Assembly: GCF_003334335.1 (NCBI RefSeq)
Contig: NZ_QOWQ01000020.1
Reading direction: 5' to 3' (one strand)
From: Escherichia coli
GTDB taxonomy: Bacteria; Pseudomonadota; Gammaproteobacteria; Enterobacterales; Enterobacteriaceae
DNA length: 64,000 bases
The notes below the pieces were generated by a model. The model was not told where the DNA came from, searched no databases, and saw nothing but the letters and a program-made list of their open reading frames with translations. Below are positions 7,640 to 52,781 of this stretch, one piece after another. The translations under genes were made by a program, and so were the position numbers. The number at the start of each line of letters is the position of its first letter. The stretch's first letter is position 1.

Positions 7640-7832
<193 letters not shown>

Positions 7833-13277: not shown

Positions 13278-15520
<2,243 letters not shown>

Positions 15521-40622: not shown

Positions 40623-41084
40623 TATGGATTGCCTGTAAAGTTCATCGCTTTCTGCTTTCTATCATCGCAGGAGAAGACGTAAAAGCAAGCGTTTAGCGAC
40701 TCTTTATGAAGTCTGAAAAGTGAGGAAATGCTGCGAGTATAACGCTTACTCGTGGGGATTTATGTTTTGCTGGTAGTTTCGTGATCGGCACCTCGCGCCA
40801 GGATGGCTTTATGCACTATCGCAATGTGGTTTGTTTGTTGTCTTTTTTAGTTCCGTCAGCGTGAGGATGCTCGCTCGGTAAACCTGATCATAATGTTTAC
40901 CAGAAACAGGGAAAGACGTGGTGTAACTGCGCCCTAATGAAGAGACAAATCTTTCGCTACACAGAGACATCATTATTCCGGTGACGGATGAATCGTGCCG
41001 GAACGCAGCCGCAGAGGTGCAAACTTTGAAGCCCTGACCCCATGCCGCTATACTGCCGCCATCACTTAAAAACAGGATACAACA

Positions 41085-41444: not shown

Positions 41445-43991
41445 TCACGAAAAATATTGCTGTAATAGCGGCGTATCGTGATCCTGATTGGCAGGCGGCA
41501 TGTTACCGATAGATTTTGTGCGGAACGGAATCACCTGTTCACGACCATCAACCTTCACAATCTGATAGAACTGCGGCAGGTTGAAGTTGATGAAGCTTGA
41601 GCCGTAGGTAAAACGGTCATGCGATGACGAGTAGAAGCGACTGACGTCACGTACCAGCTCCTCTTTGCTGCCTTCGCAGTGGTGATATACCTCAACCCGG
41701 TTGCTTTCGTCGAGAATGTAGATATTAAAGCCATTCTCGTCTTGCGTTTCTTCGAAAAAGAACTGGATGATCCCTTCGCTGGCAAAGCCGTCCACCACCG
41801 CCGGTAATTTGACGTGATTGGTTTCAACCTGCACTGACAGGCCGTGCAGTTTGTTATGCGAAATCGCGCCATAAAACTCGATGGCGTTTTCCAGTTTCTG
41901 TACCGATACATTCAGGCGTTCGAAGAACAACCCCCAGGTTTGACCAGAAACGCGCAGCGCCTTGAAACGCCCGGTTTCCTGGCGGGTGCTGGAAAGACGC
42001 AATTCAATACACTCAGAAACCAGTTGCTGCACGCGAGTACGAATTAAGCCGCGCAGATGCTGGCTATAACAGAAGACTTCCACGCTATCTGGCGGTGCGG
42101 CGTCCTGATGCATTTTGCCGAGAATAGTTTTCAGGGCTTCGATCATCGATTGCTCGCCGTTGAAGTGCAGCGTACGCACTTCGTTCCACGAGTTGCGGTA
42201 CAGCAGGTCAACGCTACCTACCAGGCAATTTTGATTCTCGCCAAAGCTGAAGACATCCAGCTTACGGAAATCGAAATGCACCACCTGATTGCGGAACGCC
42301 GCTGTCGGGTCATATTCCAGGTTAACGATAATCGCCAGATGGCGGATCTCACACGGGCTGTAGAGCGCCTTCGGTGTCGGTGCAGGTAAGCGCAGCGGGA
42401 AATGGTGCGACACGTCGGCGACCATCTCCTGTAACTTAGGCAAATCGACAATGCCGTTACCTTTAATATACAAACGGGTGCGCGAGGTCAGCAGGCCGTT
42501 AAACCATGCCCACGCCACCAGTTTATTCAGGTAACGGTTATATTCCAGCGGCTGATGGCTGATGATCGACTCAATATTTGGCGCGCGGTTATACAGATAC
42601 CAACCTGAACGGTTAGCCCGGCCCGGCGGCACATAAATAAAGGTCAGATTCGGTTCCGAGAGATCGGGTGAAATCTGCGGGTTTACCAGCGTCACTTTAC
42701 CTGGTAATGCTTCAAACGCGGCATACAGCTTACGCGTCAGCACGCCGATATCCTGCGGACTGGCGGAGACGCTAAGGTTATTGCGACGCGCAAAGCGGAT
42801 CAGATTACGGTAGCTCTGCATCATCGCGTCGAGCAACTCGTTGTGCGCCTCACGCACCTGATCAATCTTCCAGTTAGCGCGGTTATCGAGCATTGCCAGA
42901 CGAGCTTCGTCCCAACCCCACTCGCTCACTAACTGGCTCAACACTGCGCGACGCCAGCCTACGCAGGCGCGTTCACGGCTGAGCTTTTCGCACACTTTTA
43001 AATAGAAGCAGCGACGTACTAAATCCAGACGGGTAAAATCTTCAATCGCCGTCAGGTATTCAGTAACACGCTCCAGCATCATGCAGTATGGATCGAGACC
43101 AAACGATACAATCTCGCCGTCGTGCAAACGCTGTTTGATATCTTTCGCCAGCAGACGTGGGTTCGGGTATTCCCAGGAATAGGCTTCCAGCAGCAGTGTT
43201 TTCAGTACCGCTTTGTATGGGGAATCGATACTCTTGTAGAGCTGCCAAAGGCTGGCACCAAAGTACTCTTCAGCAGAAAGCGAGCTTAAGCCACCGAGAT
43301 CCAGCCATTCATTTGGCGTCAGCACGCCCTGCGCGTAAAGCGTCATCACATAGTCGTCGTAATGCTCTTCTTCGTCGCACGGCACCATATTCCACAGAAT
43401 ACGCTTACCGGCGAGACGCACGGCGGTACGATAAAATTCGTCAAGCAGCAGTATATGCTGGGTGGAGCCACAATCTTCGCCCCCCAGGCTGCCGCTTTCA
43501 TTATGACGGAAGCGGTTTTCATCAATCAGGAAGAAGCTGACTTCCACACCCAGCGAGGCGGCCCAGTTTTCCAGCAGGCTACATTTACGTTGTAGCAATT
43601 GGCGCTCTTCGCTATCGAGCCAGGATTGATGACAGACCCAGATATCCAGGTCAGAGGAACAACTTTGCCCTACGGACGAGGTGCTGCCCATGGTGTATAC
43701 ACCAGTAATTGGAAGCTCACCTTTCGGCGGATCCTGTACTGACATTCCACGATACAGTTCAAGCTCGTTCAGGTAGTGGCGTTGAGTTTCATCAGGCGTG
43801 TAAAGGCAAATGCCTTTGGGAACGTTACCATCAAGGTAACCCGGCATTAGCGGATGGTGATAGTGCAACAATGTCGGCAGTAGACTGTAGACCTGTTGGA
43901 ATGCAGGCCCCATAGCAGCAAGCGCGCGATCCACACGCAATTGATTTATGGCATCCAGTCTCTGTTTCAGAGTCTCAATATAGAGGTACAA
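41445..43991 (-). CDS. cyaA: class I adenylate cyclase
   Basis: 848-aa ORF beginning at a TTG codon ([17 protein letters not shown] read as M-initiated). Confidence 0.92.
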
Positions 43992-44377
43992 GACGTATCG
44001 CCTGATTTGCTACCCGTCATGACTGTGATTCCGCCAACATCAACGGTAACACGCGGCATTCGGGATATTTCGTATGTCAAAGGTAACCGTTACCACTTTT
44101 CGCGCCTGGTTTTTTTAGTTTCACGACGAAAAAATGGTCTAAAACGTGATCAATTTAACACCTTGCTGATTGACCGTAAAGAAAGATGCGCTACATACAA
44201 GTGTAGCACCGTTTATTCTCTGTAAATTCCTTATTACAACGGCGTGAAACGCCTGTCAGGATCCACTGCCAGACCTCATTTTACGGTTTGCGCAGGCGTC
44301 TACGTTTCACCACAACACTGACATCACTCTGGCAAGGATGTTAGGATGGACCACGGATGATAATGACGGTAACAAGC
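43992..44377. promoter_or_regulatory. cyaA-hemC divergent promoter region
   Basis: 386-bp ORF-free region between divergent starts; specific sites not resolved by eye. Confidence 0.45.
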
Positions 44378-45319
44378 ATGTTAGACAATGTTTTAAGAAT
44401 TGCCACACGCCAAAGCCCACTTGCACTCTGGCAGGCACACTATGTCAAAGACAAGTTGATGGCGAGCCATCCGGGCCTGGTCGTTGAACTGGTACCGATG
44501 GTGACGCGCGGCGATGTGATTCTTGATACGCCGCTGGCGAAAGTAGGCGGAAAAGGCTTATTTGTAAAAGAGCTGGAAGTCGCGCTCCTCGAAAATCGCG
44601 CCGATATCGCCGTACACTCAATGAAAGATGTGCCGGTTGAATTCCCGCAAGGTCTGGGACTGGTCACTATTTGTGAGCGTGAAGATCCTCGCGATGCCTT
44701 TGTGTCCAATAACTATGACAGTCTGGATGCGTTACCGGCAGGCAGTATCGTCGGGACGTCCAGTTTACGTCGCCAGTGCCAACTGGCTGAACGCCGTCCG
44801 GATCTGATTATCCGCTCCCTGCGCGGCAACGTCGGCACTCGCCTGAGCAAACTGGATAACGGCGAATACGATGCCATCATTCTTGCCGTAGCCGGACTAA
44901 AACGTTTAGGTCTGGAGTCACGTATTCGCGCCGCGTTGCCACCCGAGATTTCTCTTCCGGCGGTAGGACAAGGTGCGGTGGGTATTGAATGCCGCCTTGA
45001 TGATTCACGCACTCGCGAGCTGCTTGCCGCGCTGAATCACCACGAAACTGCACTGCGCGTTACCGCAGAACGCGCCATGAATACCCGTCTCGAAGGCGGA
45101 TGTCAGGTGCCAATTGGTAGCTACGCCGAGCTTATTGATGGCGAAATCTGGCTGCGTGCGCTGGTCGGCGCGCCGGACGGTTCGCAGATTATTCGCGGTG
45201 AACGCCGCGGTGCGCCGCAAGATGCCGAACAAATGGGGATTTCGCTGGCAGAAGAGCTACTGAATAACGGCGCGCGCGAGATCCTCGCTGAAGTCTATAA
45301 CGGAGACGCCCCGGCATGA
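44378..45319 (+). CDS. hemC: porphobilinogen deaminase (hydroxymethylbilane synthase)
   Basis: 313 aa from [20 protein letters not shown] (track ORF starts 7 codons upstream). Confidence 0.9.
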
Positions 45320-48517: not shown

Positions 48518-48724
48518 AAAAAAACGCCTGCTCTTATTACGGAGCAGGCGTTAAAACAGGTCTGTATGACAACAAGTGGGTGCTTCACTCAACGTTGTGT
48601 CCATGGTGTCTGATGAGGCATAAGCGACATCTGTCAGTGGACGATAAGCACCGTAAACGGCTCTGCGTCATTCCGGAGTTTATGAGGCACTAAGGCGAAC
48701 ATAAGAGATGGAATGAGCATCTAC
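48518..48724 (-). ncRNA. glmZ: GlmZ small regulatory RNA (SraJ/RyiA), activator of glmS translation
   Basis: 207-nt minus-strand element beginning GUAGAUGCUCAUUCCAUCUCUUAUGUUCGCC and ending in hairpin AACGCCUGCUCC-GUAAUAA-GAGCAGGCGUU plus U7; matches my recollection of E. coli GlmZ and its hemY-aslA position. Confidence 0.85.
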
Positions 48725-52344: not shown

Positions 52345-52421
52345 TGGTCGGCGAGAGAGGATTCGAACCTCCGACCCACTGGTCCCAAACCAGTTGCGCT
52401 ACCAAGCTGCGCTACTCGCCG
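52345..52421 (-). tRNA. proM: tRNA-Pro (UGG)
   Basis: 77-nt reverse-complement sequence CGGCGAGUAGCGCAGCUUGGUAGCGCAACUGGUUUGGGACCAGUGGGUCGGAGGUUCGAAUCCUCUCUCGCCGACCA; cloverleaf and UGG anticodon evident. Confidence 0.93.
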
Positions 52422-52463
52422 AAATACTGCTTTTTGAATTTTTAGTTCAATTCTTTAAAGTCG

Positions 52464-52550
52464 TGGTGCGAGGGGGGGGACTTGAACCCCCACGTCCGTA
52501 AGGACACTAACACCTGAAGCTAGCGCGTCTACCAATTCCGCCACCTTCGC
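52464..52550 (-). tRNA. leuT: tRNA-Leu (CAG), long variable arm
   Basis: 87-nt sequence GCGAAGGUGGCGGAAUUGGUAGACGCGCUAGCUUCAGGUGUUAGUGUCC...CCUCGCACCA. Confidence 0.93.
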
Positions 52551-52570
52551 ATTGTCACAACTTCTAATAA

Positions 52571-52647
52571 TGGGGTGGCTAATGGGATTCGAACCCACGA
52601 CAACTGGAATCACAATCCAGGGCTCTACCAACTGAGCTATAGCCACC
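52571..52647 (-). tRNA. hisR: tRNA-His (GUG) with extra 5' G
   Basis: 77-nt sequence GGUGGCUAUAGCUCAGUUGGUAGAGCCCUGGAUUGUGAUUCCAGUUGUCGUGGGUUCGAAUCCCAUUAGCCACCCCA. Confidence 0.93.
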
Positions 52648-52704
52648 ACTACAAATCTTGTTACGCGGTATTACTACCACCGCAGCTCAAGCGCCGGGAC
52701 TAAA

Positions 52705-52781
<77 letters not shown>

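Follow-up and report, generated by a model that had tools for sequence, protein, structure and literature searches.

The divergent genes cyaA and hemC raise two questions: at which codon does synthesis of adenylate cyclase begin, and does the DNA between the genes act as one control region or as two? We addressed both in a window of 64,000 nucleotides of Escherichia coli DNA (contig NZ_QOWQ01000020.1). On its minus strand, positions 41445..43991 hold the cyaA coding sequence (848 aa, class I adenylate cyclase), assigned from the list of open reading frames, the RefSeq CDS and the NCBIfam profile NF006977. The hemC coding sequence (hydroxymethylbilane synthase, 313 aa) lies on the plus strand at 44378..45319, assigned from the RefSeq CDS, ATG conservation and PDB chains. 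Over positions 43600 to 44700 the window matches E. coli K-12 MG1655 with 100% identity, and in that identical DNA RefSeq places cyaA at 41445-43991 (minus strand, 848 aa) and begins hemC at ATG 44378. The gap, 43992..44377, measures 386 bp, as the initial annotation had given it, and the RefSeq boundaries agree.

The best explanation of the region, and in our judgement a highly probable one, is that it is the divergent cyaA-hemC control region of E. coli K-12, with a P2 promoter and CRP-type site, a UUG start and a separate hemC promoter. The cyaA TTG start and the separate divergent promoters have been known since the 1980s; the fresh material here is confined to a comparison of about 110 Enterobacterales among the matches listed. 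Within that set, the TTG, the block containing P2 and the CRP-type site, the hemC promoter, a covarying stem-loop in the leader and a block just before the start codon all appear to be conserved order-wide. The sample for the start codon comprised 117 Enterobacterales sequences, found with a search pattern that demanded conserved codons 4-17; the pattern is biased toward Enterobacterales and leaves out lineages with a diverged CyaA N-terminus, and all counts refer to the matches listed.

The cyaA start codon

We assign the initiation codon of cyaA to the TTG at 43989..43991 (minus strand) on the basis of conservation, codon periodicity and published mutagenesis. An in-frame TAG lies 7 codons 5' of this TTG, with no ATG, GTG or TTG between the two, and 116 of the 117 sequences among the matches listed carry TTG at the start position, the single exception being a TTT in one metagenome-assembled genome. 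These observations uphold the earlier statement that the 848-aa frame is complete only when read from the TTG. Across the listed matches the upstream in-frame stop lies anywhere from 2 to 89 codons from the TTG, and no conserved start was found upstream of it in the 117 sequences. Importantly, the three-base periodicity of conservation sets in exactly at the TTG codon. At codons 18, 19, 22 and 23, four to six synonymous codons each encode one invariant amino acid, and at codon 2 the variation is synonymous in all but one sequence (all among the matches listed). Codons 2-26, 5' of the first in-frame ATG, are therefore under selection at the protein level. At the level of the whole protein, CyaA matches NF006977, an equivalog profile for class I adenylate cyclase, over its full length (residues 1-848 on profile positions 1-848; 2048.3 bits against a curated cut-off of 1761), which places it in that family; with three NCBIfam class I cyclase profiles the alignment to CyaA begins at residue 1. 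For cyaA, then, the conserved protein cannot be obtained from any other start, and the UUG is where coding constraint sets in.

The alternative named by the initial annotation was a downstream ATG giving a shorter CyaA. The first in-frame ATG is codon 27 (43913..43911); initiation there would yield an 822-aa protein and make the TTG extension an artefact of annotation. AUG is the usual start codon, and ATG27 is kept in 115 of the 117 sequences among the matches listed, although two species among them lack it. When we examined this alternative by conservation, however, codons 2-26 behaved as coding, as seen from the synonymous variation at codons 2, 18, 19, 22 and 23; moreover, periodicity is already present from the TTG, and the cyclase profiles cover the protein from residue 1. 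Changing UUG to GUG or AUG also raises expression 2- and 6-fold (PMC5499595). We consider initiation at ATG27 exceedingly improbable and effectively refuted.

The assignment of the TTG as the cyaA start codon is thus supported by the sequence comparison together with published mutagenesis: start-codon variants gave cyaA synthesis in the ratio UUG:GUG:AUG = 1:2:6 (Reddy et al. 1985, as cited in PMC5499595), in line with the earlier proposal of a weak start and low cyaA translation. The same source describes the UUG of cyaA as kept in Enterobacterales and other gammaproteobacteria (PMC5499595). Initiation at UUG would hold synthesis of adenylate cyclase low. The correct non-AUG start, moreover, proved recoverable from raw sequence. 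In the cell, cAMP levels set the state of catabolite repression, and over-production of adenylate cyclase is harmful.

Two promoters in the gap

The most conserved non-coding block of the region, at -190..-150 from the TTG in the listed matches, coincides with the cyaA promoter P2, which we place on the minus strand at 44152..44180 by sequence and conservation. Its -35 element is TTTACG (44180..44175), separated by a 17-nt spacer from the extended -10 element TGtTAAATT (44160..44152), and about 105 species among the matches listed have a 22-nt block, GGTGTTAAATTGATCACGTTTT, with no more than 4 mismatches. The transcription start, G at 44145 (minus strand), lies 7 nt past the -10 hexamer and coincides with the first base of a published primer: the primer used to clone the cyaA 5' UTR begins at GTTTTAGACC, that is, at G44145 (PMC7815308). 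P2 thus shows the features of a sigma-70 promoter, with hexamers at 17-nt spacing and a 5' end 7 nt after the -10. It is absent from a simple promoter scan because that scan needs 9/12 matches and P2 scores 8/12. Besides P2, the further cyaA promoters P1 and P' have been reported.

Overlapping the -10 and +1 of P2 is a CRP-type site, TGTTA-AATTGA-TCACG (44145..44160, minus strand), recognised from its motif, its conservation and the literature. Against TGTGA-N6-TCACA it carries 2 mismatches, and matches of this quality are not rarer than chance in the window (12 observed versus 24 expected); the motif itself is uninformative, and the putative operator is argued for by conservation, position and the literature. 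CRP is described as a repressor of E. coli cyaA and, in Y. pestis, as occupying the -10 (PMC3050693); cyaA was not among the CRP targets recovered by genomic SELEX (PMC3105977). We propose that sigma-70 P2 transcribes cyaA from G44145 and that RNA polymerase would be blocked by cAMP-CRP bound to this site, which reaches from the -10 hexamer to +1; the pathway's product would in this way exert negative feedback on its own formation. A palindrome, GTGCTACA-CTTG-TATGTAGCGC, with a T-rich flank on both strands, lies at 44188..44209, close upstream of the P2 -35; it was terminator-like in a scan of both strands and is moderately conserved among the matches listed.

On the plus strand, a promoter scan and the conservation footprint predict the hemC promoter at 44318..44347: a -35 element CTGACA (44318-44323), an 18-nt spacer, and TGt preceding the -10 element TAGGAT (44342-44347). 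In 95 species among the matches listed, the 170 nt upstream of hemC contain no conserved blocks other than those on which these hexamers fall, and in spacing, conservation and position before the start codon the candidate has the properties of a sigma-70 promoter. Transcription is predicted to start at about 44354, which would give hemC, transcribed away from cyaA under an extended -10 promoter of its own, a leader of about 24 nt. A longer hemC frame of 320 aa is possible from ATG 44357. We rejected it: ATG 44378 is kept in most of about 105 loci among the matches listed, ATGs 44357 and 44363 are not, and the solved structures (PDB chains 1ah5, 1pda and 1ypn) have 313 residues from MLDNVL, which correspond to residues 8-320 of the long frame.

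The gap was expected from the initial annotation to hold both promoters, and it does so: P2 is identified by its motif, its conservation and a published 5' end, and that of hemC by its motif and conserved blocks. The accompanying description of a shared control region did not hold up. The two core promoters lie about 137 bp apart, and the DNA between them is unconserved; the spacer at 44210..44317, between the promoters and of no assigned strand, scores near 0-3 in profiles anchored on either cyaA or hemC, and the gap measures between 269 and 1005 bp depending on the species (both among the matches listed). The gap thus appears to carry two separate core promoters, with the CRP-type site belonging to cyaA P2. 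Were it instead one co-regulated region, a single bound regulator such as CRP would control both cyaA and hemC. The divergent arrangement is indeed kept in all of the approximately 105 loci with enough flank among the matches listed, and the CRP targets predicted by PhyloScan include both genes, an outcome that follows from the intergenic region being common to them. The CRP-type site, however, lies about 158 bp from the hemC -35, and an unconserved inter-promoter stretch of such variable length argues against a fixed coupling architecture. We regard joint control as very unlikely and retain the reading of two separate promoters.

The gap had also been called free of open reading frames. This is correct insofar as it contains no conserved or annotated frame, but 8 frames of at least 20 aa overlap it. 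One of them, of 109 aa with a TTG start (43896..44225, plus strand), we do not accept as a gene: it runs opposite the cyaA start and leader on the antisense strand, through a stretch with indels, and is unconserved and unannotated. Its lack of conservation follows from a 1-nt indel within it in E. albertii and from a leader length that varies freely between species.

The cyaA leader and the block before the TTG

The P2 leader is 154 nt long in E. coli. Among the matches listed, most species have about 112 nt between the P2 block and the TTG; E. coli has 171 nt. A variable segment of about 60 nt (44011..44071, minus strand), seen in the profile and the leader alignment, is confined to Escherichia, Citrobacter and some other Enterobacteriaceae, and its conservation is near 0 in a profile of 111 species among the matches listed.

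At its 5' end, the leader can fold into a stem-loop (44088..44145, minus strand), proposed from folding and covariation, in which an inner helix, CCAUUUUUUCGUC / GGCG-CGAAAAGUGG, is accompanied by an outer helix, (C)GUU / AAC. In E. coli the stem-loop has a minimum free energy of -15.4 kcal/mol (z = -1.39, not significant alone), and the fold of the whole leader gives z = -0.61. A consensus fold of the whole leader on a plain MAFFT alignment gave nothing usable, because the variable hairpin was misaligned; a more homogeneous subset did give a usable result. In 29 species, compensatory changes occur at 5 of 6 pairs, with 39 double-change cells versus 14.8 in shuffles (0/500), and in 58 species double changes occur at all 7 of the 7 inner pairs, with 85 cells versus 26 in shuffles (0/500). 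The covariation score is 0.353 versus 0.186 in shuffles (0/500), and slid registers reach at most 0.122. One alignment behind these figures, A3, had been fitted to the model, and the shuffle test is inflated by the relatedness of the species. For the outer helix, the same alignments showed no covariation.

Leaders of the Enterobacteriaceae type have the same stem-loop architecture, as judged from folds, inspection and alignment. A covariance model, R1, did not recover E. coli and the other Enterobacteriaceae that carry the CGUUUUAGACC 5' arm at E values up to 0.01; for these species, E. coli included, the structure rests on single-sequence folds and inspection. Rfam gave no match at E up to 1 on either strand of 43850-44480, and a literature search for a cyaA leader or 5' UTR element, whose scope did not extend to the primary papers of 1983-1996, returned nothing relevant. 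Together, these results suggest that the cyaA leader opens with a conserved structured RNA that covaries in at least 58 species and lies outside the Rfam families.

What might this element do? Were it to attenuate transcription, or to make up the bulk of a short leader RNA, its long hairpin and a following U-run would stop most P2 transcripts before cyaA. The leaders of many short-leader species have the look of such a device, with an outer helix CGUUUCC/GGAAACG followed by GG and 6-7 U, but E. coli has just UUU past the helix and the U-run is missing in several Enterobacteriaceae. Furthermore, the cyaA Term-seq entries examined in PMC7815308 show 3' ends inside the ORF and none in the leader, and a fusion carrying only the 5' UTR is described there as lacking a Rho effect. 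We judge attenuation unlikely. The stem-loop can also be compared with the ompA 5' UTR. There, an established 5'-terminal hairpin stabilises the transcript. The cyaA helix likewise begins no more than a few nucleotides into the transcript, and in most Enterobacterales among the matches listed GUUUCC at +1 pairs with GGAAAC. In E. coli, by contrast, given the start at G44145, the outer helix has only 3 bp and about 8 nt are largely unpaired.

A second conserved element abuts the TTG on its 5' side: column conservation revealed a nearly invariant 14-nt block, TCAGGCGAnACGTC (43992..44005, minus strand), with 90-100% conservation per column in 90 distinct sequences among the matches listed. The block contains a degenerate Shine-Dalgarno sequence, AGG, at 44003..44001, 9 nt ahead of the TTG; so weak a site does not by itself account for the invariance. 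One candidate explanation is a small hairpin, AGGCG-AnA-CGUCU, that would mask the Shine-Dalgarno sequence and the first base of the start codon and thus add structural repression to the weak codon. Consistent with such pairing, 98.2% of cells pair in the 90 distinct sequences among the matches listed, pairing survives all 43 one-sided changes with only 8 unpaired cells, the sole variable base falls in the loop, and slid controls pair at 24-62%. Shuffles, however, pair as well (98.4%), because the columns barely vary, and the same 90 sequences contain no compensatory double changes. In addition, the RNAalifold consensus energy is just -0.36 kcal/mol, in a shifted register, and in sequences of the Proteus, Xenorhabdus and Providencia type a 1-nt deletion cuts the helix to 3 bp. 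On balance we find the hairpin doubtful.

Pairing of the start-codon region with codons 9-14 was likewise considered and rejected: RNAalifold gave -1.6 kcal/mol on an alignment of 71 species, and the changes were merely compatible. As a separate observation, synonymous sites in codons 9-14 are unusually conserved, with AGA in 93 of 117 sequences among the matches listed.

Tentatively, the covarying stem-loop of about 55 nt and the 14-nt block before the UUG, neither of them represented in a curated RNA family, may form a post-transcriptional control module for adenylate cyclase, a possibility to which we give less than even weight. If so, the stem-loop would determine how stable the mRNA is or, in some genera, work as a leader attenuator; the 14-nt block, as a site of binding or of structure, would tune initiation at the UUG and hence the access of Rho to the early ORF. 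Both elements offer concrete targets for the study of cyaA post-transcriptional control.

Relation to known systems

Premature Rho termination associated with poor translation initiation has been described by Adams et al. 2021 (PMC7815308), with cyaA among the validated cases. Two published Rho-associated RNA 3' ends, from Term-seq, lie 78 and 193 nt into the cyaA ORF and bound the segment 43798..43913 (minus strand); their positions are 3991231 and 3991346 in the supplements of PMC7815308, mapped here from the entry 'internal 78'. The Rho effect on cyaA is reported to need the ORF and to be lost in the 5'-UTR-only fusion (PMC7815308). We propose that weak ribosome loading at the UUG probably exposes the early ORF to Rho and that the published 3' ends at 78 and 193 nt arise for this reason. 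This link between weak initiation and Rho at cyaA is our own: Adams et al. do not tie the Rho effect to the UUG codon (PMC7815308).

In its start codon, cyaA resembles infC (AUU), spoT (UUG) and hupB (GUG), where conserved non-AUG starts serve to restrict or regulate expression: as in these genes, a regulatory gene sensitive to dosage has kept a weak start codon across its phylogeny (PMC5499595). It differs from infC, whose start codon is the target of IF3 autoregulation. We know of no specific feedback of this kind acting on the cyaA UUG. The combination of a weak UUG start with CRP feedback is nonetheless a textbook example of how a signalling enzyme is held scarce.

The closest comparison is with the cya control region of E. 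coli and Salmonella itself. That region was reportedly the subject of work by Roy, Haziza and Danchin (1983), Aiba et al. (1984-85), Reddy, Peterkofsky and McKenney (1985), Thorner, Fandl and Artz (1990) and Trotot et al. (1996). Primary references for it are given in PMC5499595. The likeness extends to the same locus, the identical sequence, the UUG start with its weak translation, a major promoter P2 repressed by cAMP-CRP, and a divergent hemC; between that system and the present finding there is no difference.

The cyaA start codon

The 848-aa cyaA ORF (41445..43991, minus strand) begins at a TTG codon (43991..43989). In its frame, a TAG lies 7 codons upstream with no ATG, GTG or TTG between, and the first in-frame ATG is codon 27 (TTG being codon 1). 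The ORF is complete from the TTG, as the initial annotation held, and RefSeq agrees: its boundaries for cyaA (class I adenylate cyclase) and hemC are exactly those in the window. CyaA aligns with NCBIfam NF006977 over its full length (2048 bits, cut-off 1761 bits; residues 1-848 on profile 1-848). Positions 43600-44700 are 100% identical to E. coli K-12 MG1655, and the cyaA-hemC region is present in 5426/5426 complete E. coli genomes. Between cyaY and lptM, RefSeq also marks a DKNYY-family pseudogene that is frameshifted and truncated (40781-40959, mapped from L001:182-360).

We scanned one genome per species with a degenerate DNA pattern encoding cyaA codons 4-17, which makes no assumption on the start codon and yields a sample of only those lineages that retain these codons. 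The scan returned at least 120 loci across Enterobacterales, including Photorhabdus, Yersinia, Proteus, Morganella, Edwardsiella, Pantoea, Erwinia, Dickeya and Arsenophonus. Among the matches listed, the E. coli start position was TTG in 116 of 117 usable sequences. The sole non-TTG match listed, a MAG (Enterobacteriaceae bacterium bran_bin.7), carries TTT; the sequence may be misassembled, the gene a pseudogene, or translation may start elsewhere. The nearest in-frame stop 5' of the start lay 2-89 codons off, and no conserved start codon was found upstream of the TTG in the 117 usable sequences (both among the matches listed).

Per-column conservation switches from a non-coding pattern to three-base periodicity exactly at the TTG. 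Codons 18, 19, 22 and 23, which lie outside the search pattern, each encode a single invariant amino acid through 4-6 synonymous codons, and codon 2 is TAC or TAT with one exception among the sequences listed. These sequence comparisons indicate that the residues ahead of M27 are very probably translated. The initial annotation had named a shorter CyaA from a downstream ATG as the finding that would count against it; since the codons before M27 behave as coding, and ATG27 is absent in two of the species listed, initiation at ATG27 is effectively excluded.

Published mutagenesis likewise supports the TTG start: as reported in PMC5499595, citing Reddy et al. 1985, changing UUG to GUG or AUG increased cyclase synthesis (UUG:GUG:AUG = 1:2:6), a ratio that agrees with the earlier reading of the TTG as a weak start. 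The same source, citing Reddy et al. 1985 and Trotot et al. 1996, reports that cyaA keeps the UUG in many Enterobacterales and in other gammaproteobacteria. Separately, synonymous sites at codons 10-13 (43953-43964, minus strand) are unusually fixed: among the matches listed, the rare Arg codon AGA is retained in 93/117 species, CTG in 99/117 and GAT in 109/117, which hints at an RNA-level constraint shortly after the start.

Back-to-back promoters in the cyaA-hemC gap

The two start codons are separated by the 386 bp originally noted (43992..44377). Among the matches listed, every locus with sufficient flanking sequence (~105) has cyaA and hemC side by side and divergent, with gaps of 269 to 1005 bp. 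Outside coding sequence, conservation peaks at -190..-150 relative to the TTG. On the minus strand, this conserved block supplies the sigma-70 promoter P2, with a -35 TTTACG (44180..44175) and, after a 17-nt spacer, an extended -10 TGtTAAATT (44160..44152). The 22-nt P2 core was found in ~105 species among the matches listed, 108-300 nt from the TTG (mode ~112 nt; 171 nt in E. coli). Because the cyaA 5'-UTR primer given by Adams et al. 2021 (PMC7815308) begins GTTTTAGACC, we place the transcript 5' end at G44145, 7 nt past the -10, for a leader of 154 nt.

A CRP-type site, TGTTA-N6-TCACG (44160..44145, minus strand), spans the -10 and the start site, a position that implies repression. CRP is reported to repress cyaA and, in Y. 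pestis, to bind over the -10 (PMC3050693); the cyaA site is not among the CRP targets recovered by genomic SELEX (PMC3105977). Two-mismatch CRP motifs are common by chance (12 observed in the window, 24 expected), and the assignment therefore rests on conservation, position and literature. Directly upstream of the P2 -35, a moderately conserved palindrome with T-rich flanks, GTGCTACA..TGTAGCGC (44188-44209), was picked out as terminator-like in both orientations and may be bound by a regulator or form part of an upstream cyaA promoter.

On the hemC side, a promoter scan identified CTGACA and TAGGAT separated by 18 nt, with an upstream TG (44318-44347, plus strand). In a 95-species alignment, conservation upstream of hemC was confined to both hexamers and the 14 nt immediately 5' of the start codon. 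Of the candidate starts, ATG 44378 is conserved and those at 44357 and 44363 are not, and solved HemC structures have 313 residues beginning MLDNVL; hemC therefore starts at 44378, as had been assumed. The longer mechanical ORF from ATG 44357 would be essentially leaderless, as transcription is predicted to start near 44354; the two in-frame ATGs in 44357-44377 (plus strand), which would lie around +3 of that transcript, would yield the older 320-aa HemC. In addition, a published Term-seq table contains a very abundant 3' end at ~44443 (plus strand; MG1655 3990701, score 51513), 66 nt into hemC; a 3' end within the first 70 nt suggests that hemC transcripts, too, are terminated early or processed.

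The ~137 bp between the two -35 hexamers are unconserved. From alignment, the region is predicted to hold two independent back-to-back promoters rather than a shared operator region: the initial annotation was right, by motif and conservation, to place both promoters in the gap, but not to call the control region shared. Its description of the gap as ORF-free was right in substance, although eight mechanical ORFs, each 20 aa or longer, overlap it. RefSeq annotates none of the eight. The largest (109 aa, 43896..44225, plus strand, antisense to the cyaA start) was rejected as a gene because the DNA it covers is unconserved and rich in indels, one of them a 1-nt indel in E. albertii.

The cyaA leader and early termination

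The first 55-60 nt of the leader fold as a stem-loop (~55 nt; 44088-44145, minus strand), with homologues in the Enterobacterales comparison loci L002-L121 (e.g. L017:1147-1223). The inner helix varies in sequence between genera while complementarity is kept. RNAalifold predicted the stem-loop from 29 species, with compensatory changes in 5/6 pairs; the sequence-only alignment had double-sided changes in 39 cells vs 14.8 in shuffles (0/500), and slid registers scored lower. A covariance model built from this alignment matched 58 species, in which 7/7 inner pairs had double changes (85 cells vs 26 in shuffles, 0/500), in an alignment fitted to the model and with relatedness inflating the shuffle tests. 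The model misses E. coli, which has a different 5' arm. Single-sequence folds of E. coli and other Enterobacteriaceae have the same architecture, with visible A-U/G-C exchanges; on its own, the E. coli fold falls short of significance (z = -1.39). Rfam has no family match in the leader region. Elsewhere in the window, Rfam gathering-score matches are the Erse sRNA family (14915-15166, minus strand, 319 bits), naRNA4 (7692-7769, minus), GlmZ (48518-48724, minus, just downstream of hemY) and four clustered tRNAs (52348-52781, minus).

The RNA 5' end is base-paired in most species, through GUUUCC at +1 and GGAAAC, and our best guess is that the element serves as a 5'-terminal stabilising hairpin, a function we infer entirely. 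A U-run follows the stem-loop in many species, as would suit an attenuator. For E. coli this is less likely, because the Term-seq cyaA entries retrieved from PMC7815308 are ORF-internal 3' ends only and a UTR-only fusion described there lacked a Rho effect. Downstream of this putative stabilising hairpin, E. coli carries an extra ~60 nt (44011-44071, minus strand) confined to Escherichia, Citrobacter and a handful of relatives; it is missing from most other genera, and leaders in most Enterobacterales are ~95-100 nt vs 154 nt in E. coli. A second two-mismatch CRP-like motif inside this segment (44024-44039) is probably a chance match.

The 14-nt block TCAGGCGAnACGTC (44005..43992, minus strand) adjoins the TTG and is 90-100% conserved, almost without variation across Enterobacterales. 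Its sole Shine-Dalgarno candidate is a degenerate AGG 9 nt before the TTG (AGGcGaU vs AGGAGGU by our comparison), and such near-invariance is far beyond what a 3-nt Shine-Dalgarno would need. A 5-bp hairpin that would hide the AGG together with the initial U of the UUG is possible, but shuffles pair equally well (98.4% vs 98.2%), compensatory changes are zero and the consensus energy is -0.36 kcal/mol; we do not consider it demonstrated.

Adams et al. 2021 (PMC7815308) report validated premature Rho-dependent termination of cyaA, with Rho-associated 3' ends 78 and 193 nt into the ORF (43913 and 43798) and an effect that needs the ORF; in their account, Rho termination inside ORFs generally stems from limited translation initiation. 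We suggest that the UUG and weak Shine-Dalgarno could provide this limitation in cyaA.

Overall, the observation of a TTG start is confirmed and its interpretation supported. Both this start and the divergent control have been known for about four decades, to which our comparisons make minor additions: order-wide conservation of the TTG, P2/CRP and the hemC promoter and, with putative function, a stem-loop in the leader that covaries but has no Rfam family, as well as the invariant block just ahead of the UUG.
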